Source of the DNA: a virus
UHGV virus genome: UHGV-0179687
DNA: 36,267 nt
Strand: one strand, 5' to 3'
Part shown: positions 1-36,267 of the stretch, piece after piece
Layout of the letters: the number at the start of each line of letters is the position of its first letter
Position numbering within the stretch: position 1 is the first letter of the stretch
Program-made: the position numbers and the translations under genes
The notes under the pieces: generated by a model
What the model saw: only the letters and a program-made list of their open reading frames with translations
What the model was told of the DNA's origin: nothing
Database searches by the model: none

Positions 1-597
1 TTACTCTTCCTCACGCCCCATCTTCAACACCTCATAAAATGTCCCCCGCCCAAGCCCATCCGACGGCAATTCCTGTTCCTGAGCCAGAGCTTTCAGCTTT
101 CGAAGTATCTGGTCAGATGCCGGTTTATCAGACGTCCCATAACGCCCATCAGTCTCCTCAACCAGAAGCTGAACCAGCAGCCAGCAGAGTCGGGCAGTAT
201 TCTCCCGTGCCTTATCGCGTTTATGCATTCCACGCAGGGAAGGTTGTGCTGAAGCAGTGAGATCCGGTAGCGCGTCGTCACCGAGCGTCTTCAGCCACTT
301 GCGTCCACGGCTGTTACGCGACAGTTTCATCACCGCCTTCAGGCTGCGAGCCTTAATTTCTGGCGGCGTGAGTTCGTCATCAATAAGCCGCCAGGCCAGC
401 GCGAACATTTCATCGGCATAGAACATGCGTTTATTCGCCGGGGCACTGACCATGCCAGTGGCTTTGATGGTGCGGTTGATGGCGTCGTGCAGGATACGGT
501 AATTTTCCTGATGTTCTTCCGGCAGGGCATTTGCCGGTTGGGAAGCATCGAGGCCGAGAAGCAGAAGGGCGAGATGCCGCGCTTCCAGCAGTGGCAT
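1..597 (-). CDS. hypothetical protein downstream of the island integrase (start uncertain)
   Basis: Minus-strand ORF ending at stop 1..3. The track ORF 1..894 overlaps the integrase 3' end over its first 99 codons, so the start is placed at the first Met beyond the integrase stop (codon 595..597). No motif recognised. Confidence 0.45.
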   Translation of the reverse strand: MPLLEARHLALLLLGLDASQPANALPEEHQENYRILHDAINRTIKATGMVSAPANKRMFYADEMFALAWRLIDDELTPPEIKARSLKAVMKLSRNSRGRKWLKTLGDDALPDLTASAQPSLRGMHKRDKARENTARLCWLLVQLLVEETDGRYGTSDKPASDQILRKLKALAQEQELPSDGLGRGTFYEVLKMGREEE

Positions 598-643
598 ATC
601 ACATTCCCGTTCAAACAGATTCTGACGAATGGGACTGGTCACA

Positions 644-1890
644 TTATTCTCCTTCCACGATCCGCAGCGGTTCTTCTTCGCCGAGCAAAGTCTGCCGTCT
701 GGCGGCATCAACATAGTTTCCCCACCACTGCATGAGCGGTCGCCTTTGTTCCAGGTAATCGCTGCGGTTGTAGGCTGCTTCGATCTCGTCTTCTTTCTGG
801 TGTGCCAGCGCAGATTCCAGTACTTCACGGGGGAAATGACCTGCCCCCGCCGTTCTGGCGATGCTGCGCATGCTGTGGGCGACCAGTTTACCACCGAACC
901 CCATACGGATAAGCGCGGCGTTCGCGGTCTGCTGGTGCATATGCTCCAGGGGGTTGCGGATGCTGGGGAAAACCCACGGGCGATGGCGGCTGACGGGTTC
1001 CATAACCTGAGAAACGCGCAGCGCTTGTTTGCTAAGCGGCACCGTGTGTGAGCGGTTCATCTTCATAAAGGTATCGGGTATGCGCCATTCCGCTTTTTCA
1101 TATCGATATCGCACCAGCGAGCGCTGACGGCTTCGCCGGGACGTACCCAGGTCAGTAGCTCCCATTCAATCAGACAGCGGGTTTCCTTGCGGATAGAGGC
1201 GTTCTGTAGTGCCAGCATTAGCCTGCCCAGTTCACTGGGGTGAAGGGCGGGCATGTTCTGCTTTTTCGGTTTCTTGAAGCGGGCGACTAGGTTGTCAGCC
1301 GGATTGAACTCGATGAGCTCTTCAGAGATGGCGAAGCGGAAGATTTCATTGAGCCGTGAGATAACCCGGCGCAGCGTTTCGAGGATGCCCTGTTCTTCCA
1401 GCGGTGTGAGGTGTTCCTTGAGCATTTTCGGGCGGATCTCGGTGACGGGCGTATTGCCCAGAGAAGGGAAGACGTGCATCTCCAGCGAACGCCAGACATC
1501 TTTGGCGTGATCTTCGCTAAGGTCGCTGGTCCGTTTCTTCTCTTTGAGCCACTGTTCCGCAACTTTTTCCAGCGTACATTCATTCTGGAGTCGTTGCTCC
1601 TCTGCAACCTGCTCCAGATGGGCCTGCGGGTCGATACCCTGCACGAGTAAACGCCGGTATTGCAACCTGAAATCTCGCGCCATGGCGAGGGTGACAACCG
1701 GGTAGGGGCCAATGCTGATTTTGGTCCGTTTTTTCAGCGCCGGGGGAGTGTATTCGAAGTACCAGATCTTTCTGCCGGATGGCTTAATCAACAACGCCAG
1801 CCCGTCGCCATCGCGCAGCATATACTCAGTCTTCTGCGGTTTGGCGGCAGCGATCTCGGTATTGGTTAGTGATTTCAATACCTTAGGCAT
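644..1890 (-). pseudogene. P4/CP4-57-type tyrosine integrase, disrupted by a 1-nt frameshift
   Basis: Two adjacent minus-strand ORFs (1063..1890 and 644..1165) in different frames. The first carries the N-terminal domain (LTNTEIAAAKPQK...DGDGLALLIKPSGRKIWYFEY). The second carries the catalytic domain (HSMRSIA and AAYNRSDYLEQRRPLMQWW, the His-x-x-Arg and catalytic Tyr region). The frames meet at a T5 run at 1094..1098 (A5 on the coding strand). Confidence 0.8.
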
Positions 1891-2055
1891 GTTTTAGCAC
1901 CACGCTTTTTTAGCCCCACGATACCGTGGTGCTAAACATGGTGCCAAAAGGTCAAAATTCATACAGAGATCATGACCACACATGCAACAAAAAAGCCTGC
2001 AACTCGTTGAAGTTACAGGCTTTTTAAGGTTCATGATGCATCATGAATGAATGTT

Positions 2056-2100
2056 TGGTGGAGCTGGCGGGAGTTGAACCCGCGTCCGAAATTCCTACAT
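2056..2100 (-). other. ssrA: ssrA (tmRNA) 3'-end fragment, attachment-site remnant
   Basis: Reverse complement reads ATGTAGGAATTTCGGACGCGGGTTCAACTCCCGCCAGCTCCACCA, which is the T-arm/acceptor end of enterobacterial tmRNA as I recall it. The match stops at 2100 and is followed by AT-rich unrelated DNA, so the full roughly 360-nt gene is not here. Confidence 0.8.
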
Positions 2101-2216
2101 ACCATTTATATTATAGTGAAAATAGATATTTACGTTTTAAATCAGTTAATTAGTCTTATCTTGTGTTTGGCTGTTTTATGTGATTTTAAAGTTCTGCCGC
2201 CAATTTGTCGCCAGTT

Positions 2217-3437
2217 TTATAGTGTGGGGTTATCTATCTTTTTATATTCAAATAGCATATCAATACTTCTTTCGAGTTTGTAAAAATCAGTTAAGGGGTA
2301 TAGTTTTACAATGTCCTCTTCGAAGTTTTTAATTCCAGACAGTTTTTCTTGACTTTGAAGATATCTCTTTGACATCATCAATTCTATTGAATTTTCTGTT
2401 ATTGATGAATGATCTAATGTTTTTAAGACCTGCCACGAAATAGGTGGCGTAAAGTCGAATAATGTGGAGAGTTTAGGGCAAAAATTTTGTTTTACCGTTT
2501 GTTCATATGTAACTTTGGGTGGAAATACAACATTTATTGAGCGGTTACTTAATCGTGAATTAGGCATTTTTGTAGAGAAGTAAGCTACACCGACAATTTT
2601 CGAGTAAGTTTTTCTACTAATCCATTGCATCAACAAATTAGGGATAATGTACTCTTGTATGAATGTTGCAGAACGATGATTTTTTAAATAATTACATGCA
2701 ATAATTAAAGGCCAGAAAATGAGATAAGAGGCCTTTACTCTATTTGTTTCGGCTAGTTTATTTTCGTCAGCGTAATCTGGTGAGGGATGTAACAAAAGCT
2801 GTGATGCAAAGTTTAAGACTTTATATTCAGTTTCACTGGTAGTAAATGATGAAATAAAAAGCTTGTCAAAATCTGGTTTTTCCATCTCCTGCCAACAAAC
2901 ATAAACCGAAGTGCCAAGATATAAACATGGTAAGCCAGCGACTGAATATCTTTGTGCACTAACAAAATGTCTATTGGAGAATGGAATATGGAAAATTTCA
3001 TCTCTTGACGTTAGAGGATTTTCACTTTTTCTAACTCGAAATAATGGTTTTTTATGATTGCAAATGCTACTGAGTGGAGTAGTGATGCGATGTATGTGTT
3101 GGATTGTTGAGTTATCAGAGAATGTTTTATCAAAGTGGTCATATGCTGACTTGATATCACCTGATAAAAAACTTTCAAGTGATAATGTTATTCCATTTTG
3201 AATGTTCTTAACTTTGCTGATTAATTCATCAAAATTCGGCATCCCATCTTTATTGTTGCTTTTGTATTTAATTATTGTTTTTAGATACTTATCGCAACGT
3301 TCAGTGAAGTCACTTATTATATCTCTATGTACTATAAGTGGAGGGTTTAATTTTGGTTCGGAAATGACTTGTTTTAATAATGAGTTTAAATGGTTCTCAA
3401 ATAACTTTTCTTTATTGACTTTGTTTTTAATATCCAT
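2217..3437 (-). CDS. hypothetical AT-rich cargo protein, 406 aa, with a possible RES-like motif
   Basis: Long minus-strand ORF starting 10 nt after the int stop. Hand-counted G+C about 27-30 % against about 55 % in the structural genes. Segment PFSNRHFVSAQRYSVAGLPCLYLGTSVYVCWQEM resembles the Arg / LY-L / Glu pattern of RES domains; this is weak and from memory. Confidence 0.6.
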   Translation of the reverse strand: MDIKNKVNKEKLFENHLNSLLKQVISEPKLNPPLIVHRDIISDFTERCDKYLKTIIKYKSNNKDGMPNFDELISKVKNIQNGITLSLESFLSGDIKSAYDHFDKTFSDNSTIQHIHRITTPLSSICNHKKPLFRVRKSENPLTSRDEIFHIPFSNRHFVSAQRYSVAGLPCLYLGTSVYVCWQEMEKPDFDKLFISSFTTSETEYKVLNFASQLLLHPSPDYADENKLAETNRVKASYLIFWPLIIACNYLKNHRSATFIQEYIIPNLLMQWISRKTYSKIVGVAYFSTKMPNSRLSNRSINVVFPPKVTYEQTVKQNFCPKLSTLFDFTPPISWQVLKTLDHSSITENSIELMMSKRYLQSQEKLSGIKNFEEDIVKLYPLTDFYKLERSIDMLFEYKKIDNPTL

Positions 3438-3447
3438 TTTGATAAGC

Positions 3448-4467
3448 TCAAATAGTTAACATATGTAAAGGGTTTTTGGTAACGGCATCTTCAAGATGGT
3501 CTGGGGAAAAATGAGAATAAACCATTGTCATTTTTATATCTGTATGACCGAGAATCTCTTTAAGAACAAGTATGTTTCCTCCGTTCATCATAAAATGGCT
3601 GGCAAATGTATGACGTAATACATGGGTGCATTGACCCTCTGGAAGCTCAATACCGGCCCGCTTTACTGCACGCTCAAAGGCTTTTCTGCAGGGCGAGAAT
3701 AACTTCCCTCGGTTTTTAGGAAGTTCGTTGTACAGCTCCTGAGATATCGGCACGGTACGGTTTTTCTTGCCCTTCGTCTTGGTATAAGTGATGCGGTATT
3801 TGGATAACTGATGGCCCTGCAGTTTTTCGGCTTCACTCCACCGTGCGCCGGTAGCTAAGCATATTTTGGTAATCATTAGTAGGCTCGGGCTTTGAGATTC
3901 AGCACATGCAGCCAACAGGCGTTTGATTTCCTCCGTGGAAAGAAAGGCTAGTTCACCTTCAGCAATTTTAAATGTTGGAAGCCCGGCAAGAGGGTTGGGG
4001 GCTGACCAGTGGCCCAGCTTTTTCAGTGTACCAAAAACCGATGATAGGTTGCGTTGTTCAAGGTTTACCGTGCGGGGCTTAACGGGCGACATCAGCGTGC
4101 CATCTTCATTTCGCACTTCACCTTTTAGCCGTGCTTCGCGGTATTTCGTAAAGTCACCGGCAGTCAGCTCTGAAGCGATGGGATCGCCCAGACCATTACA
4201 GATAATTCCAAGTTTCGCCATGAGTCGCTTGGGGTCTGCGAGTGTCTGACCATACAGGGAATACCACAGCTCAATTAATTCTGATAGGCGTCGCCGATCA
4301 TCCTTTTCACCCAACCACGGTTTTTTATTCACTTCTTCCATTGTGAAGCTTTCAAACGCAATGGCTTCGCCTTTCGTGGCAAATTGCTTACGCACGCGCT
4401 TGCCATTGCGTCCATTGGGATAGCACTCACACAACCATTTTCCGTTCGGCTGTTTTCTGATGGTCAT
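3448..4467 (-). CDS. int: P2-type tyrosine integrase
   Basis: 339 aa. N-terminal RNGKRVRKQF, then TGARWSEA, HVLRHTFASHFMMNGG and LGHTDIKMTMVYSHF (Arg, His-x-x-Arg, catalytic Tyr), typical of P2 Int. Confidence 0.9.
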   Translation of the reverse strand: MTIRKQPNGKWLCECYPNGRNGKRVRKQFATKGEAIAFESFTMEEVNKKPWLGEKDDRRRLSELIELWYSLYGQTLADPKRLMAKLGIICNGLGDPIASELTAGDFTKYREARLKGEVRNEDGTLMSPVKPRTVNLEQRNLSSVFGTLKKLGHWSAPNPLAGLPTFKIAEGELAFLSTEEIKRLLAACAESQSPSLLMITKICLATGARWSEAEKLQGHQLSKYRITYTKTKGKKNRTVPISQELYNELPKNRGKLFSPCRKAFERAVKRAGIELPEGQCTHVLRHTFASHFMMNGGNILVLKEILGHTDIKMTMVYSHFSPDHLEDAVTKNPLHMLTI

Positions 4468-4468
4468 A

Positions 4469-5101
4469 TCAAAGGCTCTTAATGATTTTCAGTGCGCGGC
4501 CTACTACCTCAATGTCATCCAGGCCGCACTCAAACGATGAATCATCCTGATGCACTACTAATTTGTTTCCCGGGAGTCGAGTCAATTTAACAATGCTTTT
4601 TATCCCGTCGATATCGACTAACCACATACCATTTACTAGTGGTGTTTGGTTGCGATCTATTAAATAAGAATCACCAGAAGTAGTCACCAGCAGTAGGTTG
4701 CTTGAGTCTGAGGGGAGTATGCTGCTATCAATGATTGCTTTTCCAGCATCGATCAATAAACCACCGTTGAGAGTCGCCTTGTCAATTTCAGGAGATACTA
4801 GTTCAGAAAGAGGTATAACCTTGCTGGAGTTCACGGAGTTGATATTTTTTTGGGGTTCAATGTTTGAACCTGGCTCCCCCTGTCCGGTGGTTAGCCACAG
4901 TAAAGAAACTCCTGTTTCCAAGGCGCACTGAATCACCCACTCTGCAGGAAAACTATCTCTTAAGTATCTGTTTGCCATGGTACTTTTTGATGCGCCCAAG
5001 TGATCGCAAAGTTGCTGTCTGGACTTGAAATCATAGGCTGCCATTAGTCTATGGATAGCCTCTCTTCCCCCTGTATTCTCTCCAGCCTTTACCTGTATCA
5101 T
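4469..5101 (-). CDS. cI: 186-type CI immunity repressor
   Basis: 210 aa, directly upstream of int on the same strand and divergent from the Apl-like/cII genes. N-terminal HTH-like region. Size and position match phage 186 cI. Confidence 0.7.
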   Translation of the reverse strand: MIQVKAGENTGGREAIHRLMAAYDFKSRQQLCDHLGASKSTMANRYLRDSFPAEWVIQCALETGVSLLWLTTGQGEPGSNIEPQKNINSVNSSKVIPLSELVSPEIDKATLNGGLLIDAGKAIIDSSILPSDSSNLLLVTTSGDSYLIDRNQTPLVNGMWLVDIDGIKSIVKLTRLPGNKLVVHQDDSSFECGLDDIEVVGRALKIIKSL

Positions 5102-5113
5102 TTTTTAATCCTA

Positions 5114-5142
5114 TTGACGTATCAAATATTGGATCGTAGTAT
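5114..5142 (+). promoter_or_regulatory. candidate early lytic promoter (pR-like)
   Basis: TTGACG (5114..5119), 17-nt spacer, TAGTAT (5137..5142), in the cI/apl divergent intergenic region. Two near-identical 15-mers, atcaaatattggatc (5121..5135) and gtcaaatattgaatc (5151..5165), overlap or follow it and may be operators. Confidence 0.5.
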
Positions 5143-5220
5143 CTCTATGTGTCAAATATTGAATCAAGTAAAACGAGATAAAACGACGTAAACCAAACCT
5201 TAATCGGGAGATACTGCACT

Positions 5221-5463
5221 ATGAGCACTGATATTTCAATTCGTGTACCAAAAGAGATGGCTACGCCTGCAGAGTTCGCGGAATGGGAAGGTATCTCCCG
5301 CGGCTCCGTGTATCAAAAAATTCACCATGGTCAGCTTGCTAAATACATGGTCAAGAAAGAAAAAAATAAAGGCCGCGTAAGCCTGCGTTATCTGATGTAC
5401 AAAACCGATCAGGTCCGTGAATCCCTCGGTCATTGCAACTTCCGCGTCATTGTTGGTAAGTAA
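5221..5463 (+). CDS. Apl/Cox-like small DNA-binding protein (excisionase/repressor position)
   Basis: 80-aa ORF, first gene rightward from the immunity region, as apl is in 186. Call is by position and size. Confidence 0.55.
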   Translation: MSTDISIRVPKEMATPAEFAEWEGISRGSVYQKIHHGQLAKYMVKKEKNKGRVSLRYLMYKTDQVRESLGHCNFRVIVGK

Positions 5464-5495
5464 GTTCAATTATGAGAACTTTCTAAGGGGGTAGC

Positions 5496-6005
5496 ATGTT
5501 TGATTATAAGATTTCCAAACACCCGCATTTTGATGAAGCCTGTAGAGCTTTTGCACTTCGTCACAATATGGCGAAGCTGGCAGAACGTGCAGGAATGAAT
5601 GTCCAGACTCTGCGAAACAAACTCAACCCAGATCAACCGCATCAGCTCAATGCGCCAGAAATCTGGCTGCTTACCGATCTGACTGAAGATTCAACGCTGA
5701 TAGATGGTTTTCTGGCACAGATTCACTGCCTGCCATGTGTACCTATTAATGAGGTAGCAAAAGAGAAACTGCCGCATTACGTCATGAGTGCAACCGCAGA
5801 GATCGGGCGTGTTGCTGCAGGTGCGGTATCTGGCGATGTAAAAACCAGTGCAGGTCGTCGTGATGCTATCAGCAGCATTAACTCTGTAACACGACTGATG
5901 GCGCTGGCTGCTGTTTCATTGCAGGCCCGTTTACAGGCTAACCCTGCGATGGCGAGTGCAGTTGATACCATGACTGGCCTCGGTGCTTCATTCGGTTTGC
6001 TGTGA
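5496..6005 (+). CDS. cII: CII-like lysogeny establishment regulator
   Basis: 169 aa, the length I recall for 186 CII, immediately after the Apl-like gene. RBS aagggggtagcATG. Confidence 0.6.
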   Translation: MFDYKISKHPHFDEACRAFALRHNMAKLAERAGMNVQTLRNKLNPDQPHQLNAPEIWLLTDLTEDSTLIDGFLAQIHCLPCVPINEVAKEKLPHYVMSATAEIGRVAAGAVSGDVKTSAGRRDAISSINSVTRLMALAAVSLQARLQANPAMASAVDTMTGLGASFGLL

Positions 6006-6012
6006 GGTGCTT

Positions 6013-6213
6013 ATGCTGACGAAAGAACCATCATTTGCATCGCTGCTGGTAAAACAAAGCCCGGCAATGCACTACGGTCACGGCTGGATAATGGGTAAGG
6101 ATGGTAAACGCTGGCATCCGTGCCGTTCACAAGATGAATTGCTGGCAGAACTATCAACGAAAAAACGGGGGAACAAATGGCTATTGAAGGCGCTGCGGCG
6201 ACTGTTCCATTAA
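6013..6213 (+). CDS. hypothetical early protein
   Basis: ORF with RBS gaggtg upstream of the ATG at 6013. Start chosen inside track ORF 5983..6213. Confidence 0.4.
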   Translation: MLTKEPSFASLLVKQSPAMHYGHGWIMGKDGKRWHPCRSQDELLAELSTKKRGNKWLLKALRRLFH

Positions 6214-6518
6214 GCCCCGGTGAACGCCTGAATGGACTTAATCACATTGCGGAGTTAAGGGCGAAAGTATTTGGCCTGAATATTGAGTCAGAGCTTGAGC
6301 GGTTTATTAAAGATATGCGTGATCCACGGGATATCAATAACGAAAAAAATAAACGAGCACTGGCTGCCATATTCTTTATGGCAAAAATTCCAGCTGAACG
6401 TCATAGCATCAGCATTAATGAGCTGACCACTGACGAAAAGCGGGAGTTGATTAAAGCAATGAATCATTTTCGTGCAGTGGTGAGCTTATTTCCCAGACGG
6501 CTAACCATGCCGAATTAA
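6177..6518 (+). CDS. hypothetical early protein
   Basis: 113-aa ORF with RBS ggggga. No motif recognised. Confidence 0.45.
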   Translation: MAIEGAAATVPLSPGERLNGLNHIAELRAKVFGLNIESELERFIKDMRDPRDINNEKNKRALAAIFFMAKIPAERHSISINELTTDEKRELIKAMNHFRAVVSLFPRRLTMPN

Positions 6519-6585
6519 CCAACTAATGAAATTAATGGCGTAAACCCTCCGGGCATCCCTTTATCTAAATTCAGGAGAATTGATT

Positions 6586-6819
6586 ATGCGTAATATTGAA
6601 ACCCTCACGACTAAAACCGGACCGGATGATGCATGGCTTAATATTTTACTGACAGAGGCTCGTCTGGAAGAACGCCGGGCAAGGGCTGAAGCAATGGCAG
6701 CTCGCCTTGATAGCCTGGCGTGTCATATCTCATCCCGCCAGCTAAACCACGTCGAAGCAGCAGAACTGCTGCGTGTGACCGCTGAAGCAATCCAGAACGA
6801 AGCGCAGGAGATCCACTAA
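6586..6819 (+). CDS. hypothetical early protein
   Basis: ORF with aggag RBS 8 nt upstream of the ATG at 6586. Stop overlaps the next start. Confidence 0.5.
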   Translation: MRNIETLTTKTGPDDAWLNILLTEARLEERRARAEAMAARLDSLACHISSRQLNHVEAAELLRVTAEAIQNEAQEIH

Positions 6820-7046
6820 TGGCTGATGCAATGGATCTCGTACAGCAGCGCGTTGAAGAAGAACGCCAGCGCCACATCCGTGCTGCCCGTGCCAAAACAC
6901 CGGGCATGTCTCGCGTGCTTTGCATTGAGTGTGAAGCGCCAATTCCGCCAGCACGCCGCCGCGCCATTCCGGGAGTGCAGCTTTGCATTACCTGTCAGGA
7001 AATCGCAGAGCTGAAAGGTAAACATTACAACGGAGGTGCTGTATGA
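6819..7046 (+). CDS. TraR/DksA-family C4 zinc-finger protein
   Basis: 75 aa with CIECEAPIP...CITCQ, two Cys-x-x-Cys pairs spaced as in TraR/DksA. Common in P2-like early operons. Confidence 0.75.
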   Translation: MADAMDLVQQRVEEERQRHIRAARAKTPGMSRVLCIECEAPIPPARRRAIPGVQLCITCQEIAELKGKHYNGGAV

Positions 7047-7900
7047 GCACCATCCTGAAATGGGCGGGTAATAAAACCGCCATTATGTCCGAACTGAAAA
7101 AACACCTTCCTGCTGGCCCGCGACTGGTTGAACCTTTCGCGGGTTCTTGTGCTGTGATGATGGAGACGGATTACCCCAGCTATTTGGTTGCGGATATTAA
7201 TCCTGATTTAATCAACCTCTATAAAAAGGTTGCCGCTGATTGTGAATCGTTTATATTTCGCGCCAGAGTTTTATTTGAGATCGCAAACAGGGAGGTGGCT
7301 TATTACAACATAAGGCAGGAGTTTAATTACTCCACTGAAATTACTGATTTCATGAAAGCGGTATATTTCCTGTATCTCAATCGTCACGGTTACCGTGGTT
7401 TATGTCGCTATAACAAGAGCGGGCATTTCAACATTCCCTACGGTAATTATAAAAATCCGTATTTCCCTGAAAAAGAACTTCGCACATTTGCAGAAAAAGC
7501 CCAGCGAGCAACGTTTGTCTGCGCCAGCTTTGATGAAACGCTGGCGATGTTGAAGGCGGGGGATGTGGTGTATTGCGATCCGCCGTATGACGGTACGTTT
7601 TCCGGCTATCACACTGATGGTTTCACTGAAGATGACCAGTATCACCTGGCATCCGTTCTTGAACATCGGTCATCAGAAGGACATCCGGTCATTGTTTCTA
7701 ACAGTGACACATCCCTGATCCGTTCGCTGTATCGCAATTTTACTCACCACTACATCAAGGCAAAACGCAGCATCGGCGTAGCAGCTGGTGAGAGTAAATC
7801 TGCAACAGAAATCATTGCTGTTTCCGGGCCGCGCTGCTGGGTGGGATTTGATCCTTCGCGTGGCGTGGATAGTTCTGCCGTGTACGGAGTGCGTGCATGA
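7043..7900 (+). CDS. dam: DNA adenine methyltransferase (Dam-like)
   Basis: 285 aa with the DPPY catalytic motif (VYCDPPYDG) and the N-terminal PFAGSCAV AdoMet-binding-like segment. Confidence 0.85.
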
Positions 7901-10311
7901 GCCATGCTGATATGAACAATTGCAGCGGCTTTAACGAGGCCGCCGCAGCATTCTCATGGAACAGCCCGAAAAAGGCTATTAACCCTTATCTGGACCCGGC
8001 GGAAGTTGCGCCGGTTTCTGCGCTTTCAAACCTGATCACTCTGTACGCTGCCGATAACGAGCAGGAACAACTGCGCCGCGAGGCACTGAGTGATCAGGTC
8101 TGGGAGCGTTATTTCTTTAATGCATCCCGTGATCCTGTCCAACGCGAAATGGAGCAGGATAAGCTCATTAGCCGGGCAAAGCTGGCGCATGAGCAGCAGC
8201 GTTTTAATCCGGACATGATCATACTGGCGGACGTTAACGCCCAGCCTTCCCATATCAGCAAGCCGCTGATGCAACGTATTGAATACTTCAGCAGCCTGGG
8301 CAGGCCAAAGGCTTATTCCCGCTATTTGCGTGAGACGATTAAGCCATGTCTGGAACGACTGGAGCATGTACGCGACAGTCAGCTATCCACTTCTTTTCGC
8401 TTTATGGCAAGCCATGAAGGGCTGGACGGCCTGCTGATCTTGCCTGAATTGAGTCAGGATCAGGTGAAACGCCTGTCTACTCTTGTCGCTGCGCATATGA
8501 GTATGTGTCTTGATGCCGCTTGTGGTGATTTGTACGCCACCGATGATGTTAAGCCAGAAGAAATCCGCAAGACATGGGAAAAGGTGGCAGCAGAAACCCT
8601 GCGACTGGATGTCATACCGCCTGCGTTTGAGCAACTCCGCCGGAAAAGAAACCGCCGTAAACCCGTGCCCTATGAACTCATTCCGGGTTCGCTGGCGCGT
8701 ATGTTGTGCGCCGATTGGTGGTACCGTAAATTATGGAAGATGCGTTGCGAATGGCGGGAAGAGCAGTTGCGTGCTGTTTGTCTGGTCAGCAAAAAAGCAT
8801 CTCCCTATGTCAGCTATGAAGCCGTGATGCATAAACGTGAGCAGCGCCGTAAGTCGCTGGAGTTTTTCCGTTCTCATGAACTGGTGAACGAAGACGGCGA
8901 CACGCTGGACATGGAGGATGTGGTAAACGCCAGCAGCACCAACCCTGCACATCGCCGCAATGAGATGATGGCCTGTGTTAAAGGTCTGGAGCTTATCGCG
9001 GAAATGCGCGGTGACTGCGCCGTTTTTTACACCATCACCTGTCCGTCACGTTTCCATTCCACGCTAAATAACGGCAGGCCCAACCCGACCTGGACAAACG
9101 CGACGGTAAGACAAAGCAGTAATTATCTGGTCGGCATGTTTGCTGCATTTCGTAAGGCGATGCACAAAGCCGGGTTGCGCTGGTATGGCGTGCGGGTGGC
9201 TGAGCCGCATCATGACGGCACAGTTCACTGGCACCTGTTGTGTTTCATGCGCAAAAAAGACCGCCGCGCCATTACTGCATTGTTGCGTAAGTTTGCTATC
9301 CGTGAAGACCGCGAGGAGCTGGGTAATAACACGGGGCCACGCTTTAAGTCTGAGCTGATAAACCCGTGCAAAGGAACGCCGACTAGCTACATCGCGAAAT
9401 ACATCAGTAAGAACATTGACGGGCGTGGTCTGGCTGGCGAGATCAGCAAGGAAACGGGTAAATCTCTGCGTGATAACGCTGAATACGTTAATGCCTGGGC
9501 GTCTCTGCATCGTGTTCAGCAATTCCGCTTCTTTGGCATTCCGGGACGTCAGGCTTACCGTGAACTGCGATTGCTGGCTGGTCAGGTGGCAAGGCAACAG
9601 GGTGACAAAAAAGCAGGTGCGCCGGTACTGGATAACCCGCGCCTTGATGCCATTCTGGCTGCAGCTGATGCTGGTTGTTTTGCCACCTACATCATGAAGC
9701 AGGGCGGCGTACTGGTTCCCCGTAAATATCACCTCATCAGAACCGCTTATGAAATCAACGAAGAGCCGACCGCCTATGGCGATCACGGCATTCGTATTTA
9801 TGGCATCTGGTCACCCATTGCAGAGGGCAAAATCTGCACTCATGCAGTGAAGTGGAAAATGGTTCGTAAGGCCGTTGACGTTCAGGAGGCGGCAGCCGAC
9901 CAGGGCGCTTGCGCCCCTTGGACTCGTGGCAATAACTGTCCCCTTGCTGAAAATTTGAACCAACAAGGGAAAGACAAATCAGCTGATGGGGATACCAGAA
10001 CGGAGATCACCCGCATGGATGACAAGGAGTTGCACGATTACCTGCACAGTATGAGCAAAAAAGAGCGCCGGGAACTGGCAGCAAGGTTACGCCTGGTGAA
10101 ACCGAAATGGCGTAAAGACTACAAACAGCGAATTACAGAGCATCAGCGTCAGCAGCTCGTCTATGAACTGAAGTCCAGAGGATTTGATGGCAGCGAGAAA
10201 GAGGTCGATCTGCTCCTTCGCGGTGGCAGTATTCCGTCAGGAGCAGGCCTGCGTATCTTCTATCGGAACCAGCGTTTGCAGGAAGATGATAAGTGGCGGA
10301 ACCTGTATTAA
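7897..10311 (+). CDS. A: replication initiation endonuclease (P2 gpA-like)
   Basis: 804 aa. His-hydrophobic-His motif (TVHWHLLCF) and a downstream YIAKYISK tyrosine segment typical of rolling-circle initiators. Sits where P2 gene A does. Confidence 0.9.
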
Positions 10312-10403
10312 TTACGCGGGTTAACAATTCGTGCTCTTAATAATACCAGGCATATCAGGCTGATGAACGTAAAAAAACGTTTTACATCAGTAAGATTATT
10401 ATA

Positions 10404-10423
10404 TACTGTAAATATAAACAGTG
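10404..10423 (+). promoter_or_regulatory. LexA (SOS) box
   Basis: tACTGTaaatataaACAGtg matches CTGT-N8-ACAG with an AT-rich spacer, about 45 nt upstream of the ORF at 10465. Confidence 0.7.
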
Positions 10424-10464
10424 GCTATACATACAGTGTTGCGTGTGGTGTCATAGGAGGAAAG

Positions 10465-10653
10465 ATGCAGGACTATTTTTTGGAGTCTTTGAAGCTCCAG
10501 CGCATTGATTTTTTTCTTAAGCTTGTAGCGGCTAGTGAGTGTAGTGATGAAGAGAAGGGGCTGGCTTTGCAATGGGTTTCTGAACTGACAGATGAACTCA
10601 TGGCAAAAATCAGAACCCACGAATACAACCGCTCAATGGATGTCATCAGCTGA
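10465..10653 (+). CDS. small hypothetical protein downstream of the LexA box
   Basis: 62-aa ORF with RBS aggagg. No motif recognised. Confidence 0.5.
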   Translation: MQDYFLESLKLQRIDFFLKLVAASECSDEEKGLALQWVSELTDELMAKIRTHEYNRSMDVIS

Positions 10654-10663
10654 GGTGACTTTT

Positions 10664-10897
10664 ATGCGCATTGAAATAATGATCGATAAAGAGCAGAAGA
10701 TTAGCCAGTCTACCCTGGACGCCCTTGAATCCGAGCTTTACCGCAATCTGCGCCCCCTGTATCCCAAGACGGCGATCCGCATTCGCAAAGGCAGTGCCAA
10801 CGGTATCGAGTTGACCGGCTTAAAACTTGATGAGGATAAGCAGCGGGTAATGGAAATTATGCAGCAGGTCTGGGAAGACGACAGCTGGCTGCATTAG
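10664..10897 (+). CDS. dinI: DinI-family protein
   Basis: 77 aa, MRIEIMIDK...DALESEL...KQRVMEIMQQVWEDDSWLH, matching DinI conserved positions (MRIE start, DAL-x-EL, KQR-x-x-EI-x-Q-x-WE...W). Confidence 0.8.
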   Translation: MRIEIMIDKEQKISQSTLDALESELYRNLRPLYPKTAIRIRKGSANGIELTGLKLDEDKQRVMEIMQQVWEDDSWLH

Positions 10898-11183
10898 CGA
10901 ACGTTGCGGACGATAAAACTGGCTTTTACCGTCCGCAAGGTTGAACAACGAGCCGTGCGAGGCGTTAGAAATTGCCTTTGTTAGTGCCTGCTTCTCATAA
11001 GAGGCACTATATATGCTAAATGCAGTGGTTTAAGGCAGAAACATCTTGCGCGATTAGGGGCAATGAACTTAAGTTAAGTAACGCAACCAACAGTTAAAAC
11101 GGTTGTCTTAGTTATAAGGAACTTGCTGTTGTGGTTGCTGGTGACGAAGTGTACACTTCCGCGCCGTATAAGAAGGAGGGGTT

Positions 11184-11402
11184 ATGTCAAGTATCGCCGC
11201 ATTGAAGCTGGGTAATCCAGTTGAACGTTTGGCACGGGTTCTGAAAGAGAACCAGGACAAGCTCAATCTGAGTAAAGATGGTTTTGTGTCCGTAGATTTG
11301 TCCAACGAAGAAGCTATGAAAGCCATCCGAGATCAGATGGATAAGCTTGAAGGCATCAAAACGAGCACTGTTAAAGCAAAATATTATTACAGAACCCGAT
11401 AA
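11184..11402 (+). CDS. small soluble hypothetical protein (first gene of accessory pair)
   Basis: 72 aa, strong RBS aaggaggg. Stop overlaps the next start (TAATG). Confidence 0.6.
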   Translation: MSSIAALKLGNPVERLARVLKENQDKLNLSKDGFVSVDLSNEEAMKAIRDQMDKLEGIKTSTVKAKYYYRTR

Positions 11403-12244
11403 TGGCAACATTACTTTTAGCAGTGATTTTGGTTAGTGGTTTTATATATGTAAACCTATCACTTTCAACACGTTATAGATATAAGCGTTCCAATGGCTGG
11501 GACGCTTATTTTTTTGTGGCTGCATGGGGAATTGTCTTTTTCCTCGCTGGCGGCTTCCTTACCTTCGCTCTTAACATCAGCGGTGGGTTTCGCTGGTTTT
11601 CTAATGCGCTGAATCTGACTCCAGACAGCTTTAACGGGATGTTATCCACCACAACCGATAAACCGCAGCGCATCAATGAAATTAAGCAAATCGCGTGGGT
11701 TGTGATTTCAATAGTTCTCGCGGCGCTGTTCGGTTGGCTAAACAAACGCCGTACTTCAAAGGGGGATCGCCGTTGGGATGCACTGGCAAAGGCAGTGGGA
11801 AACAATGCTTTTGAATCGCTGCTCATGGAAGCATCAGCTCGCCAGTTTCCTATCATTGCTACACTTTCATCACGCAAAATCTATGTAGGGCTGGTGACTT
11901 GCCCTGCGTTGGAAAATGGATTGTCGGAACACCTTGAAATTCTCCCCTTGCTGAGCGGATATCGTGATAAAGACGACCTAACGATAAATATCACGACAAA
12001 CTATCATCAGCACTATCTTGATAGCGGTGTTATCAATGGGATGTCGCGCCTGAATATCCAGGATTTCCGTGTGCTTCTCCCTAAAGATGAAGTTGAAACC
12101 ATCTCGTTTTTTGATACTGAAACGTATAACAAATTTAAAGAAAACGAAGCGCGTGACCGGAAAGACTGCCGCAAGTTGGGTGGTAAAAAGCCATCCGCAC
12201 GCAGGAGAAAGACTGCTGGCGACGCAGAGCAGGGTAGTGCATGA
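11402..12244 (+). CDS. membrane protein with three N-terminal hydrophobic helices and a C-terminal soluble domain
   Basis: 280 aa. Hydrophobic segments LLLAVILVSGFIYVNLSL, YFFVAAWGIVFFLAGGFLTFAL and IAWVVISIVLAALFGWL, then about 170 soluble residues and a basic tail. Confidence 0.65.
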   Translation: MATLLLAVILVSGFIYVNLSLSTRYRYKRSNGWDAYFFVAAWGIVFFLAGGFLTFALNISGGFRWFSNALNLTPDSFNGMLSTTTDKPQRINEIKQIAWVVISIVLAALFGWLNKRRTSKGDRRWDALAKAVGNNAFESLLMEASARQFPIIATLSSRKIYVGLVTCPALENGLSEHLEILPLLSGYRDKDDLTINITTNYHQHYLDSGVINGMSRLNIQDFRVLLPKDEVETISFFDTETYNKFKENEARDRKDCRKLGGKKPSARRRKTAGDAEQGSA

Positions 12245-12289
12245 CTATGCTGCATGAATTTGCATGATCGTTTGAGGATCGTTTTAGCT

Positions 12290-12318
12290 CCGGCCCGCCA
12301 GTTCAGGCGGGCTTTTTC
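12290..12318 (+). terminator. rho-independent terminator after the membrane-protein gene
   Basis: GC stem cggcccgcc / ggcgggc with loop agttca, followed by TTTTT. Confidence 0.7.
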
Positions 12319-12459
12319 ATATCTCATGCAGGTGCATGAAAACCACTACACAAAGCGGGCAGGCGTGGCGGGGATACGAGCGCGCGCAACAGGTAAACCC
12401 CTAGACTTGTTAAAATATTTGTCATATAAATCAAACATCAAACCTAAGGGAGGCAGAGG

Positions 12460-13893
12460 ATGATCCAGCCAAAAGTTTTTATATCCTATAGTTGGTCAAG
12501 TAAAACTCATCAGCAACATATCAAAGATATGGCTGAACGATTGGCGGCAGATGGAGTTGAAACTGTCATAGATATTTATGACTTGAAAGAAGGGGATGAT
12601 AAAAATTATTACATGGAAAGAATGGTTCAAGATGAAACGGTTACGCATGTTTTAGTCATTTGTGATAAAAAATACTCAGAAAAAGCCGATTTAAGAAAAG
12701 ATGGTGTCGGTGTTGAGTCGATGATAATTTCCCAGGAAATATATTCATCCGTGTCGCAGTCCAAATTTATACCATTAATATTTGAGTACAAAGATAATGG
12801 AGAGCCGTATACTCCAATCTTTCTGAAGTCTAGAATCTATATTGATTTTTCAACGCCAGAAAAAGAAAATGATAATTGGGAGCGTTTAATCAGGTTGCTT
12901 TATGGAAAACCAGAATTTACTAAGCCACCATTAGGTAAGCCTCCGGTTTATTTAGAGCAAGACACGTCAAAACCGACGTATGAAATTCATGCAAAATTTC
13001 AAACTTTAAAATCAGCTGTCTTAAATCAAAAGCAGACATTAAAGGATTGCAGAAGGCAATTTTTAGAGGTGTGCCGAAATTATTGTATCTCACTACAAGT
13101 CGTAACAAACCCAACTACTGAAGATTTTGCAGCGGAAGTTTTGCAAATTCATAAAGAGCTTATTGCCGTTAGGGATGCCATTACAGACTGGGTTTTACTT
13201 GAGGGTGATACGCAGGGCGAAGACTTTTCCAAAGCACTATTACAGTTTATGGAAGTAATGTTAGCGATTAGAAATCGTCCGAAAAATGTAAATTCATATA
13301 ATGAAATATGGTTTTTGCCCCATCAGATTTTTGCGTATGAAACGTTTTTATATATTTTGGCGGCTTTAATAAAAATTGAAGCTTTCCAGCATGTACATAC
13401 ATTACTGCATACATCTTATTTGCTACCCGATCATATAACCAGTCCGGGAATGGAGTTTGCTAATTACAGTGAGTTATATTTAAGCTCTGATTACCTTCAA
13501 AGTAAATTGTCCCCTGAAAACTATCGACTGTATTCCCCTGTTGCTGAGTTAGTAAAGCAAAGTGCAACTAGAGATGATGTGTCTTTCGATGATTTGAAAC
13601 AAGCTGATCTTGTTGCTCTTATGATATCCTTCATTAATCCCGGTATTTTTTGGTACCCGCAAATGTTGTTGTATTCCGGGCACTATGAGAAATATCCTCT
13701 ATTTACAAGAGCAATACAGCATAGAGGATTCAAGAGTATTGCAGTTATTACCGGAATCGATGACAGTAAACTTTTGGCTCAAAAGCTGACAGAGGGTGAG
13801 GCCCAGCGAAATACTAATAACTGGTATCATTTCGGTTTTAATAGAGACTTTCTCAATAAAATGAATGTTAGTCGTCTAGATAGTATTGAATGA
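12460..13893 (+). CDS. TIR-like domain protein with an unrecognised C-terminal domain
   Basis: 477 aa. N-terminus KVFISYSWSS...VLVICDKKYSEK...GVGVESMI fits a TIR/TIR-like fold signature (FISYS strand, later acidic residue). RBS aagggagg. Hand-counted G+C about 27-35 %. Confidence 0.7.
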   Translation: MIQPKVFISYSWSSKTHQQHIKDMAERLAADGVETVIDIYDLKEGDDKNYYMERMVQDETVTHVLVICDKKYSEKADLRKDGVGVESMIISQEIYSSVSQSKFIPLIFEYKDNGEPYTPIFLKSRIYIDFSTPEKENDNWERLIRLLYGKPEFTKPPLGKPPVYLEQDTSKPTYEIHAKFQTLKSAVLNQKQTLKDCRRQFLEVCRNYCISLQVVTNPTTEDFAAEVLQIHKELIAVRDAITDWVLLEGDTQGEDFSKALLQFMEVMLAIRNRPKNVNSYNEIWFLPHQIFAYETFLYILAALIKIEAFQHVHTLLHTSYLLPDHITSPGMEFANYSELYLSSDYLQSKLSPENYRLYSPVAELVKQSATRDDVSFDDLKQADLVALMISFINPGIFWYPQMLLYSGHYEKYPLFTRAIQHRGFKSIAVITGIDDSKLLAQKLTEGEAQRNTNNWYHFGFNRDFLNKMNVSRLDSIE

Positions 13894-33202: not shown

Positions 33203-33684
33203 TGATGGTGCTGGGATTATACGTGTTTATGCTGCGCACCGTGCCGTATCAGGAGCTGCAGTATCAGCGCAGCTGGCGACATGCGGCTAACAGCCGGGTT
33301 AACCGACGCCCGTCAACGCAGTTTCTGGGACCGGATAACGACATGCTGACGCTTTCTGGCGTTCTTATGCCGGAAATAACAGGCGGCAGGCTGTCGTTGC
33401 TGGCACTGGAGCAGATGGCAGAACAGGGGAAAGCATGGCCCCTGATTGAAGGCAGCGGCACGATTTACGGCATGTATGTGATTGAGGGACTGAATCAGAC
33501 TAAAACGGAGTTTTTCCGCGACGGTATGCCGCGCAGGATTGAGTTCACCCTGTCGCTAAAACGCGTGGATGAATCCCTGTCCGATATGTTCGGTGATCTC
33601 AGTGCGCAACTGAATAATCTGCAGGGAACGGAAACATCTGCCTTAAGCGATATCAGTAAAACGGTGGGAGGGCTGCTGTCGTGA
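33199..33684 (+). CDS. U: tail protein U
   Basis: 161 aa, overlapping the T stop. Confidence 0.85.
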   Translation: MMMVLGLYVFMLRTVPYQELQYQRSWRHAANSRVNRRPSTQFLGPDNDMLTLSGVLMPEITGGRLSLLALEQMAEQGKAWPLIEGSGTIYGMYVIEGLNQTKTEFFRDGMPRRIEFTLSLKRVDESLSDMFGDLSAQLNNLQGTETSALSDISKTVGGLLS

Positions 33685-34781
33685 ATTTCAGCTCTGAACT
33701 GCTTAACAAAGGCAACAAAACTCCGGCATTCAGCATCAGTATTGAAGGCAGGGATATCACCACTGTGCTGGACAACCGCCTGATGGGGCTGACGCTGACG
33801 GATAACCGGGGATTTGAAGCGGACCAGCTTGATCTGGAGCTGGACGACGCCGATGGAAAAATCGTGCTGCCGCGCCGTGGTGCGGTCATTACGCTGGCGC
33901 TGGGCTGGAAGGGGCAGCCGCTTTTCCCGAAAGGGGCATTCACGGTGGACGAGATTGAACACACTGGCGCACCGGACCGCCTGACTATCCGGGCGCGAAG
34001 TGCTGATTTTCGGGAAACCCTGAATACCCGCCGTGAAAAATCGTGGCATAACACCACCATCGGGGAAGTGGTGAAGGAAATAGCCGCGCGGCACAAGCTG
34101 AAGATGGCACTGGGTAAAGAGCTGTCGGATAAGCCCGTGGAGCATATAGACCAGACTAATGAGAGTGACGGCAGTTTTCTGATGCGACTGGCGCGACAGT
34201 ACGGTGCCATCGCGTCGGTGAAAAATGGCAATCTGTTATTCATCCGGCAGGGGCAGGGCAAAAGCGCCACTGGTAAACCACTGCCAGTGATCACTATCAC
34301 ACGCAAGGACGGCGACAGTCACCGCTTTACCCTGGCAGATCGCGGAGCCTACACGGGCGTAATTGCCAGCTGGTTGCATACCCGTGAACCTGCGAAGAAA
34401 GAAAGCACCACGGTGAAGCGTAAGCGCAGAACTAAGAAGCAGAAGAAAGAGCCGGAAGCGAAGCAGGGCGATTACCTGGTGGGTACGGATGAAAACGTGC
34501 TGGTACTTAATCGCACTTATGCCAACCGGAGCAACGCCGAACGAGCGGCGAAAATGCAGTGGGAACGCCTGCAACGCGGCGTTGCGTCATTCTCGCTACA
34601 ACTGGCGGAAGGGCGGGCAGATCTCTACACGGAAATGCCAGTGAAAGTCAGTGGCTTTAAACAGCCGATAGATGATGCGGAATGGACTATTACCACCCTG
34701 ACGCATACTGTCAGCCCGGATAACGGTTTTACGACCAGTCTGGAGCTTGAAGTGAAGATTGATGATTTCGAAATGGAATGA
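33681..34781 (+). CDS. D: tail protein D
   Basis: 366 aa, overlapping the U stop. Last late structural gene. Confidence 0.85.
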   Translation: MNFSSELLNKGNKTPAFSISIEGRDITTVLDNRLMGLTLTDNRGFEADQLDLELDDADGKIVLPRRGAVITLALGWKGQPLFPKGAFTVDEIEHTGAPDRLTIRARSADFRETLNTRREKSWHNTTIGEVVKEIAARHKLKMALGKELSDKPVEHIDQTNESDGSFLMRLARQYGAIASVKNGNLLFIRQGQGKSATGKPLPVITITRKDGDSHRFTLADRGAYTGVIASWLHTREPAKKESTTVKRKRRTKKQKKEPEAKQGDYLVGTDENVLVLNRTYANRSNAERAAKMQWERLQRGVASFSLQLAEGRADLYTEMPVKVSGFKQPIDDAEWTITTLTHTVSPDNGFTTSLELEVKIDDFEME

Positions 34782-34871: not shown

Positions 34872-35090
34872 ATGATGATTTGCCCACTGTGTGGAAGTGC
34901 CGCCCATACTCGCAGCAGTTTTCAGGTATCTTCATTGACCAAAGAGCGTTACAACCAGTGCCAGAACATTAACTGCAGCCATACTTTTGTTACCCATGAA
35001 ACTTTTGTTCGTTCGATTGCAACGCCAAAAGAGTCAAATCCGGTTCAGCCGCATCCTCATAAATTTAAACAGGTGGGTTTGCCGATTTAA
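34872..35090 (+). CDS. ogr: Ogr/Delta-type zinc-finger late-gene activator
   Basis: 72 aa, MMICPLCGSAAHTRSS...ERYNQCQNINCSHTF, with the Cys-x2-Cys...Cys-x4-Cys spacing of P2 Ogr. Confidence 0.85.
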   Translation: MMICPLCGSAAHTRSSFQVSSLTKERYNQCQNINCSHTFVTHETFVRSIATPKESNPVQPHPHKFKQVGLPI

Positions 35091-35351
35091 ATGGCGACAT
35101 AACTACATGATTTAAAACTATACTTTTCTATAAGTTGAGGTTAAATTAACAATGCCTGACGTTAGCGGGGATTTATCCCCACTCCGTAGATATGTAGTTT
35201 GTCGCTTTGCGACTGCGGACCGATTACCTGATTGCCATGTAATCGGACGCCGACTTGTTAAGCTTTCTGGGCTAACTGGTTGTTATTTTTTATTTAGTTA
35301 GGGCCATGCGCTTGCGCTAAGAGACGTCAGGTATCTATGGAGGAACAAGTT

Positions 35352-35525
35352 ATGGATACAAACGAACTTGGCTTAGTTAAGGCGCGTGTTGAACTGATCA
35401 CCGCTATGCTCAAATGCGCAACCGCGTTTGTTGGCTTAGTTGGTGCGGTTTACGCCGTTCTTAACATGGCCTTCAACTACAACAATTTAACTCATGACAA
35501 TAGAAGTTCAAAGGTGGGAAGATAA
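35352..35525 (+). CDS. small hydrophobic protein upstream of the reverse transcriptase
   Basis: 57 aa from the ATG at 35352, with ggagg 8 nt upstream. One long hydrophobic segment (ATAFVGLVGAVYAVLNMAF). Its 3' end overlaps the RT start by 32 nt. Coding status is uncertain. Confidence 0.4.
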   Translation: MDTNELGLVKARVELITAMLKCATAFVGLVGAVYAVLNMAFNYNNLTHDNRSSKVGR

Positions 35526-36267
35526 ATTTGAGATTAAGCCCGGGGTTTGGGTTTATGTCCCAAGCGTTGAGGCACGTAAAGTCGGAGGGAAGATACTTCA
35601 GGCTGTCAGAAACAAGTGGATTCCGCCACTCTATTTTTACCATCTAAGAACTGGTGGGCATCTTAAAGCTGCCAGATTACACTTAAAAAGTGATTTTTTT
35701 GCCGTTGTTGATATTAAACAATTTTTTCAGTCAACGAGCCGTAGTCGTATCACCCGTGATCTAAAGAGCTACTTCACCTATTCTCAAGCGCGGGAAATCT
35801 CAACATTTTCAACTGTAAGAAACTTGTCCCATAGTCCACATAAGCATGTCCTCCCTTTTGGTTTTGTTCAATCTCCAATACTTGCAACCCTCTGCTTAGA
35901 TAAAAGTTATTTTGGTAGCTTACTACGCCGATTGAACAAACATCATGATCTCAAGCTAAGTGTGTTTATGGATGATGTGATCATCTCGTCAAACGATTTG
36001 GCCCAATTACAAGCGGCTTACGACGAAGCACTAGTGGCAATGCGTAAATCTGGTTATCAAGCCAACATGAGTAAAACTCAGGCACCATCGTCAAAGATTA
36101 GCGTGTTTAATTTAACTTTGAGTAAGGGAGTTATGAAAGTCACATCTCAGAAAATGAGTGACTTCCTGATTGATTTCTATTCAAGCAATTATGAGCCGCA
36201 CAGAATAGGGGTCAAAAACTACGTCGAAGCTGTTAATCCAGGGCAAGCGAAACTCTTTAAGTTGTAA
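35494..36267 (+). CDS. compact reverse transcriptase
   Basis: 257 aa with RT motifs in order: FFAVVDIKQFFQST (motif A Asp), LPFGFVQSPILATLCL (motif B'), LSVFMDDVIISS (motif C, x-M-D-D), ...MSKTQ (motif D). Hand-counted G+C about 40 %. Confidence 0.75.
   Translation: MTIEVQRWEDKFEIKPGVWVYVPSVEARKVGGKILQAVRNKWIPPLYFYHLRTGGHLKAARLHLKSDFFAVVDIKQFFQSTSRSRITRDLKSYFTYSQAREISTFSTVRNLSHSPHKHVLPFGFVQSPILATLCLDKSYFGSLLRRLNKHHDLKLSVFMDDVIISSNDLAQLQAAYDEALVAMRKSGYQANMSKTQAPSSKISVFNLTLSKGVMKVTSQKMSDFLIDFYSSNYEPHRIGVKNYVEAVNPGQAKLFKL

Follow-up and report, generated by a model that had tools for sequence, protein, structure and literature searches.

When the last nucleotides of ssrA are found stranded between two mobile elements, the question is raised how they came to lie there, which of the elements arrived first and where each of them ends. 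Such a fragment is present near the left end of the viral genome UHGV-0179687, a stretch of 36,267 nucleotides that was analysed over its whole length and is referred to here as the window. As a preliminary description of the locus had stated, the fragment is flanked by a P4-type integrase on the left, which turned out to be frameshifted, and by the cargo, integrase and CI genes of a prophage on the right. It is very likely the scar left by the insertion of a P2/186-like phage into an ssrA gene that was already backed by an old and disabled island. The features that bear on this reading are collected in Table 1.

The plus strand of the window at 2056-2100 reads TGGTGGAGCTGGCGGGAGTTGAACCCGCGTCCGAAATTCCTACAT, and its reverse complement is identical in 45 of 45 positions to the 3'-terminal 45 nt of the annotated ssrA of both E. 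coli K-12 and isolate F374. With up to 3 mismatches allowed the 45-mer was matched only once in the window, and it was found in none of 100 shuffles; outside 2056-2100 no second core remnant of 12 nt or more was detected in the window. Neither ARAGORN nor Rfam at its gathering score called a tmRNA gene in the window, which is to be expected as only a 45-nt fragment is present. At a permissive threshold the Rfam tmRNA model (RF00023) gave a 5'-truncated hit below the gathering cut-off (38.8 bits, E 2.8e-14), in which approximately the last 42 positions of the model (~333-374) were confidently aligned to window 2056-2097 on the minus strand. The only portions of ssrA retained at 2056-2100 are the T-arm, the 3' acceptor strand and the CCA. 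The preliminary claim that the window holds no more than the last 45 nt of the gene, on the minus strand, was in this way confirmed. Across all junction types the block of identity measures 47 nt, i.e. 45 + 2, because the two T's past the CCA are also present in the phage arm, in the island arm and in the K-12 downstream sequence. The terminator-like hairpin that follows in the island arm was evident from RNA folding of 1975-2055 on the minus strand (16-bp stem, MFE -28.7 kcal/mol, z = -4.3, 0 of 200 shuffles equally stable), although a simple terminator scan made no call for it.

Table 1. Positions of the features of the window and composition of the junctions found at the shared core.
Feature	Position or source	Strand	Basis or composition
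First island gene after the integrase, 214-aa protein	1-645	minus	ORF list
P4/CP4-57-type tyrosine integrase pseudogene	644-1890	minus	Pfam Arm-DNA-bind_3 + Phage_int_M + Phage_integrase
Terminator-like hairpin with U-tract	1984-2025	minus	From the island arm, ~30 nt past the ssrA CCA end
Shared att core	2054-2100	minus	Displaced ssrA end (2056-2100) and two flanking T's
Phage P' arm of att	2101-2216	+	116 bp, AT-rich
406-aa cargo protein, att-int slot	2217-3437	minus	ORF list; GC 0.32-0.34
Phage tyrosine integrase, 186/Fels-2 type	3448-4467	minus	Pfam Int_N + Phage_integrase; frame intact
CI repressor, 186-type lysogeny switch	4469-5101	minus	F374 homologue annotation; Pfam Phage_CI_repr in identical copies
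P2/186-like prophage body	5221-34781		ORF list, annotated homologues, PADLOC
ogr/Delta late-gene activator	34872-35090	+	F374 annotation; Pfam Ogr_Delta in identical copies
RT cargo module, ogr-att slot	35152-36267	+	Inside the prophage
Junction: occupied attB	E. coli 200164; L029, L030		Island arm - core - ssrA body
Junction: attP	Phage Cartapus; IMG/VR contig		P arm (Cartapus: …ccccttgatttatt) - core - P' arm (Cartapus: accattt…)
Junction: ssrA side	F374; L020-L027		P arm - core - ssrA body
Junction: this window	2054-2100		Island arm - core - P' arm

The core and its flanks were aligned across the window, E. coli 200164, L029/L030, phage Cartapus, an IMG/VR contig, F374 and L020-L027. Four types of junction, whose sequence identities and structure were read directly from the alignment, were observed (Table 1), and this is the pattern expected of recombination between attP and attB, with the core of the window forming at once the int-proximal junction of the prophage and its junction with the island arm. 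In Cartapus the 47-nt core, equal to the ssrA 3' end, is located between a D-ogr-cargo segment and a cargo-int-cI segment. The IMG/VR contig provides a second and independent attP of the same kind, again sited between ogr and int and with other cargo in its ogr-attP slot, and in Salmonella phage RE-2010 (Felsduovirus) an annotated terminal repeat_region contains the core. The P' arm of the window carries tandem 186-type integrase arm-site repeats (GCCGCCAatttGTCGCCA) at 2196-2213, which occur once in the window with 0 expected and which fit the published 186-type arm consensus tgccGCCActt (PMC3448106). The same tandem repeat pair is also found in the P arm of the comparators, which reads cTGCCGCCAttttGCCGCCAct. 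Homologues of the P' arm were recovered from Cartapus, RE-2010, F374, an IMG/VR contig and a Klebsiella prophage record. The phage integrase of the window is 93% identical to its counterparts in Cartapus and RE-2010, both of which have this core in their records, and its identity to P2 Int is about 39%; its activity and the position at which it exchanges the strands are inferred. In F374 the displaced fragment (L002 10042-10086) reads …CCTACGT where the window has …CCTACAT, and its identity to ssrA therefore stops at 43 nt and not at 45; this polymorphism at the inner edge of the identity block may have a bearing on the position of strand exchange.

It could be argued that so short a piece, in a window where no tmRNA gene is called, is a decayed or truncated ssrA pseudogene left by a deletion, or that the similarity arose by chance. 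An exact match of 45 in 45 has, however, an expectation of zero by chance, the breakpoint is, to the base, where the attP core ends in Cartapus, in RE-2010 and in the IMG/VR contig, and the sequence to its right is a phage P' arm with Int arm sites. The probability left to a deletion remnant or a coincidence is negligible. Nor is the presence of a further ssrA 3' end unusual in itself: the 45-mer was matched at ssrA in all 5,426 of 5,426 complete E. coli genomes and its places exceeded the number of genomes by 336, showing that additional copies of this end are not rare in E. coli.

Each of the two elements was also found without the other. An ssrA locus that lacks the phage was provided by L029 and L030. 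Window positions 1-2100 are identical to both (2100/2100 bases) and the identity stops exactly at 2100|2101; in these phage-free genomes the island arm directly abuts an intact 363-nt tmRNA gene, called by ARAGORN and located beside smpB. Likewise, copies of the prophage that are 99.97% identical over window 2049-13000 were found beside at least three other kinds of left-hand neighbour: the sequence normally present downstream of ssrA, with host genes after it; a P4-type integrase island of a different kind; and another phage. The suggestion of successive integrations at the ssrA 3' end, resulting in two separate elements in tandem, was thus borne out from both sides. Compared on the smpB side, the host flank of the phage-free L029-type genomes shares 99.1-99.2% identity with that of L020 and L024, which carry the phage, and ~78% with E. 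coli; phage-free and lysogenic comparators therefore belong to the same non-E. coli species. This species is probably Klebsiella pneumoniae, since the nearest phage records are K. pneumoniae prophages at 99.9% and since AraC, RND and Rrf2 genes lie nearby. These neighbours of the comparators, the AraC, RND efflux pump and Rrf2 genes, resemble the K. pneumoniae rarA-oqxAB-oqxR locus.

The order in which the two elements arrived can be read from the integrase of the island. One base has been lost from a homopolymer of its gene, which now reads T5 at 1094-1098 (on the coding strand, A5 instead of A6), and the gene is thereby split into two ORFs, 1063-1890 and 644-1165, before most of the catalytic domain is reached. 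The frameshift was called by protein and DNA alignment against intact E. coli homologues. With its gene frameshifted, the island has no functional integrase. The T5 allele was also found in six other genomes, i.e. in every island copy examined, phage present or not, and the exact 275-aa truncated product, including its out-of-frame tail, was found in 3,466 index blocks of public assemblies. A sequencing error was considered and rejected as the source of the frameshift, given that the same allele and truncated product recur in thousands of index entries. As all copies of the island share the allele whatever sits before them, it is a real and fixed mutation and the integrase was dead before the phage arrived; and as the allele is present in phage-free genomes, the island was in place before the phage.

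The final structure alone would fit either sequence of events, and the phage could in principle have entered a bare ssrA first, to be followed by insertion of the P4-type island into the displaced 45-nt fragment. That fragment keeps the extreme ssrA 3' end used by P4-type integrases, tandem arrays can extend via insertion into either regenerated core (PMC7192596), and the K-12 repeat of CP4-57 (psaA) is only 14 nt long and is contained in the 45 nt. It is the uniformity of the island that makes this reverse order highly improbable: the identical integrase frameshift is carried in phage-free genomes and with three different phages in the slot, the window up to 2100 equals the phage-free allele base for base, and the island is 99.7-99.9% conserved over 8.9 kb across all contexts.

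That the island was the older resident is also in keeping with the variety of its neighbours. The same island was found in three states: phage-free, preceded by another 186-like phage, and preceded by one with an Arm-DNA-bind_2 domain in its integrase. In the slot before it, the two other phages (L031, L034) left fragments of 45 nt and ~36 nt, the shorter one belonging to the phage with the Arm-DNA-bind_2 integrase. At least three different phages have been placed before the same dead island, so that in this lineage ssrA is a repeatedly used landing site. Among the genomes that share the prophage of the window, L015/L017 have a three-copy array (3470 and 9840 in window orientation), in which a different P4-type island comes after the 45-nt fragment and a 35-nt ssrA fragment comes after the island. 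The different island of L015/L017 encodes a SIR2-STAND NTPase protein and an IS3, and a sequence of ~80 nt from downstream of ssrA is duplicated after each fragment.

The particular combination seen in the window is less common. Among GTDB species representatives no match was obtained for the exact triple junction of island arm, core and P' arm, and a looser pattern of core and P' arm was found at 6 loci, in Enterobacter, Citrobacter, Klebsiella, Photorhabdus and unclassified Enterobacteriaceae, none of them with this island. The island arm, the core and the P' arm of this phage family were found together in 1 of the 5,426 complete E. coli genomes (F374). In a search of IMG/VR no excised or packaged form of the exact RT-carrying phage was found, and attP was recovered at the family level only.

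The island itself has the position expected of a P4-type element. Its integrase lies directly downstream of ssrA and in the same orientation, and it adjoins an intact ssrA in L029, L030 and 137 E. coli genomes; in these 137 of the 5,426 complete E. coli genomes it is a ~90%-identical version of the island arm that adjoins the gene. In L029-type genomes the first ~11 kb of the island yielded no distal ssrA repeat, and in E. coli F374 only a degenerate psaA-like remnant was seen, beside ypjA. Because no repeat pair was found, the ssrA-integrated status of the island is deduced from the type and position of its integrase. Joint mobilisation of phage and island by the phage integrase is unlikely, as no distal repeat long enough for the 45-nt core of the phage was seen. 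The first gene of the island encodes a protein for which no match was found in Pfam, PADLOC or NCBIfam, other than an assignment to PHROG 30524 (function unknown), and its position is kept in the island copies L029-L034. An exact look-up of this 214-aa protein returned a single 2.2-kb read-assembly contig; other assemblies likely call a 213-aa start, as the DNA is identical in L029 and L030. Past the left edge of the window (L029 12316-20828) the island encodes a 321-aa RVT_1 protein, a 530-aa AAA_15/SMC-type ATPase and a 209-aa protein, which together make up a retron-like trio, followed by an IS3, an Integrase_1 remnant and a Hachiman pair (helicase and HamA). With these contents of the L029 island, the ssrA locus stacks several defence systems from two elements.

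The other boundary of the prophage lies beyond the window. Since the last base of the window is also that of the RT stop codon, its own attR, P arm and ssrA are deduced from related genomes. In all eight genomes examined that encode an identical RT an intact 363-nt tmRNA gene starts on the minus strand exactly 108 bp after the RT stop, and in seven of the eight it is adjoined by smpB. Between RT and the tmRNA gene these comparators have a P arm with 186-type Int arm sites and a terminator-like hairpin. L020 and L024 are 99.8-99.9% identical to the last 6.8 kb of the window, the annotated E. coli isolate F374 has the same layout of RT, ssrA and smpB, and the Klebsiella prophage record extends from the homologue of 2101 to a point 106 bp past the stop codon of RT. 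Past its right edge the window would be expected to continue through a P arm (…CTGCCGCCATTTTGCCGCCAC…CCCCTTGATTTATT) and then, with TGGTGGAGC…, into a full 363-nt ssrA, followed by smpB. The intact gene that the preliminary description had placed beyond the right edge is therefore seen by proxy, in the eight genomes with the identical RT and in F374, and the distance of 108 bp, constant in all eight, puts RT inside the prophage. In L025 (6883-7245; E. coli CP147901.1) the tmRNA gene located 108 bp after RT encodes the tag ANDETYALAA and not ANDENYALAA, and in place of smpB HlyD-like, OEP and BapA-like genes are found next to it; this context suggests a rearrangement, or a second, element-borne ssrA.

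It had also been suggested that the prophage extends past ogr and includes RT. Were the prophage to stop just after ogr, the RT module would be host DNA or a separate third element before ssrA; the attP of classical P2 and 186 indeed lies only a short way past ogr, GC is lower in the RT region (0.42-0.45) than in the tail genes, and in some E. coli copies an IS421 lies between ogr and RT. Such an early end must be regarded as extremely improbable, as no core copy or remnant is present between ogr and RT, whereas 186-type arm sites and the core are found downstream of RT in every comparator. Moreover, RT accompanies the phage in Klebsiella-type and E. coli genomes, always at 108 bp from ssrA, and in Cartapus and the IMG/VR contig the ogr-attP slot is filled by different genes. 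The inclusion of RT in the prophage was in this manner sustained, and the locus does not imply an unoccupied ssrA.

By its gene content and junctions, the prophage is a Fels-2/186-type P2-like element that runs from 2101 to the end of the window and that would continue for ~108 bp more. Its gene order is P2-like, with an int-CI-CII switch and ogr, and its body includes CII, the replication genes with a Dam methylase (7043-7900) and gpA (7897-10311), capsid, tail and lysis genes, and gpD (33681-34781). As far as gpD and ogr, the P2/186-like gene set is complete. The gpA-gpQ hotspot (11402-13893, plus strand) holds a bSEFIR (SEFIR/TIR) defence protein of 477 aa (12460-13893; PADLOC 343 bits). 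In the same hotspot this gene is preceded by one for a 280-aa protein without a family match. A cargo hotspot between int and att has been described for P2-like phages (PMC13586616), and in the window this slot is occupied by the 406-aa protein, which had no match in Pfam, PADLOC or NCBIfam and was assigned only to PHROG 7835 (function unknown). In relatives the slot holds other cargo, including an anti-phage dCTP deaminase, an HNH endonuclease and a RES-domain protein, and for this reason the 406-aa protein is a candidate defence gene.

On the ogr side, the RT module begins with a structured non-coding region of ~180 nt (35152-35334; fold z = -2.9), closed by a 12-bp stem (GCCTGACGT…ACGTCAGG) that resembles the a1/a2 repeats of retrons; no Rfam family was matched by this region. 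A 57-aa hydrophobic ORF (35343-35516) overlaps the start of RT. The RT itself (257 aa, 35494-36267) contains Pfam RVT_1 and has its best PADLOC match in RT_VI (63 bits), and it falls far below the curated retron family cut-offs (NCBIfam St85, 49.5 bits versus 235 needed). An IS421 (IS4-family) insertion between ogr and RT was noted in several E. coli prophage copies (e.g. L022 4392-5504). The exact RT protein is indexed in 2,610 blocks, from both E. coli and Klebsiella-type genomes, and the phage could move the module between them. That the ogr-attP slot of ssrA-targeting Fels-2-like phages is a second att-flanking cargo hotspot besides the int-att slot, filled here by a retron-like module, is a tentative proposal that we regard as somewhat doubtful.

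Taken in order, the events at this locus were very likely as follows. The ssrA gene was first followed by the older P4/CP4-57-type island, with its integrase already inactivated by the frameshift. The attP of a Fels-2/186-type P2-like phage, whose core is identical to the last 45 (+2) nt of ssrA, then recombined site-specifically with the 3' part of the gene. The insertion placed the phage between the ssrA body and its old 3' end, displacing the latter to its present position in the window, and the phage copy of the core restored a full-length ssrA. On the plus strand the resulting array begins with the island, its dead integrase and its terminator, passes through the displaced 45 nt into the P' arm, and goes on with cargo, int and CI … to gpD, ogr and RT. 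As judged from the comparators, a P arm that brings a new terminator would come next, and after it the intact ssrA, regenerated by the insertion, and smpB. Since the fragment matches the ssrA end exactly, a wild-type ssrA beside the island is predicted to result if the prophage is precisely excised.

The value of the fragment is practical rather than conceptual, since it sets the left boundary of the prophage to the base, at 2100|2101, and together with the comparators it puts the right boundary at ~108 bp beyond the window. Within these boundaries both the 406-aa protein and the RT module count as phage cargo flanking att; the integrase remnant at 644-1890 falls outside them and belongs to another element, an older island that is immobile. 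Should RT prove to be a new retron or defence-RT subtype, the boundary defined by the fragment shows it to be phage cargo.

Tandem insertion at the tmRNA gene is a well-known and ordinary kind of arrangement, and novelty is low here because both tandem arrays at this gene and P2-like phages that target ssrA have long been known. Fels-2 and SopE-phi are P2-like, have a 186-type integrase and integrate into ssrA (PMC3448106). The prophage of the window is like the Fels-2/SopE-phi/RE-2010 group (Peduoviridae) in its P2-like gene order, its 45(+2)-nt ssrA core and its 186-type arm repeats, and the 93% identity of its Int links it to RE-2010 as well as to Cartapus (Elveevirus). It differs from the group in the cargo on both sides of attP, where ogr is accompanied by a retron-like RT module and int by the 406-aa protein, and in its host, which is seemingly Klebsiella-like and not Salmonella.

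Like the island of the window, CP4-57 of K-12 has a P4-type integrase right behind ssrA, in the orientation of that gene and at ~165-200 bp from the CCA end, and in both cases the island supplies the sequence that follows the ssrA 3' end. The integrase of this island type is, however, only ~48% identical to K-12 IntA (as compared for the E. coli 200164 homologue), in the window it is frameshifted, and the cargo of the L029-type island consists of a retron-type RT with an ATPase and of Hachiman. Furthermore, the distal repeat psaA of K-12 measures 14 nt, whereas the island of the window has none in its first ~11 kb (L029-type). In K-12 the imperfect repeat of CP4-57 leads to loss of T357 and inactivation of tmRNA on excision (PMC10107115), in contrast to the exact fragment of the window, with which excision of the prophage should restore a normal tmRNA.

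The closest general model is that of the tandem arrays at tRNA and tmRNA genes catalogued by Islander and TIGER, in which 125 tandems of at least two were counted among 3,919 islands (PMC4383910). Arrays of this kind form at tDNA sites, with the tmRNA gene given as the most enriched target in the relevant statements of these sources (PMC4383910; PMC7192596, citing Williams 2003), and the principle applied there is that a regenerated tDNA and a displaced fragment mark the ends of an element (PMC4383910; PMC7192596). As in those arrays, a regenerated target is followed by elements separated by displaced 3' fragments, the fragments lie in the orientation of the gene (here the minus strand), and every member has an integrase of its own, that of the phage at 3448-4467 being intact and that of the island at 644-1890 frameshifted. 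There is no essential difference between such arrays and the locus described here, in which one member, whose own distal fragment was not found, has become a fixed, integrase-dead remnant.
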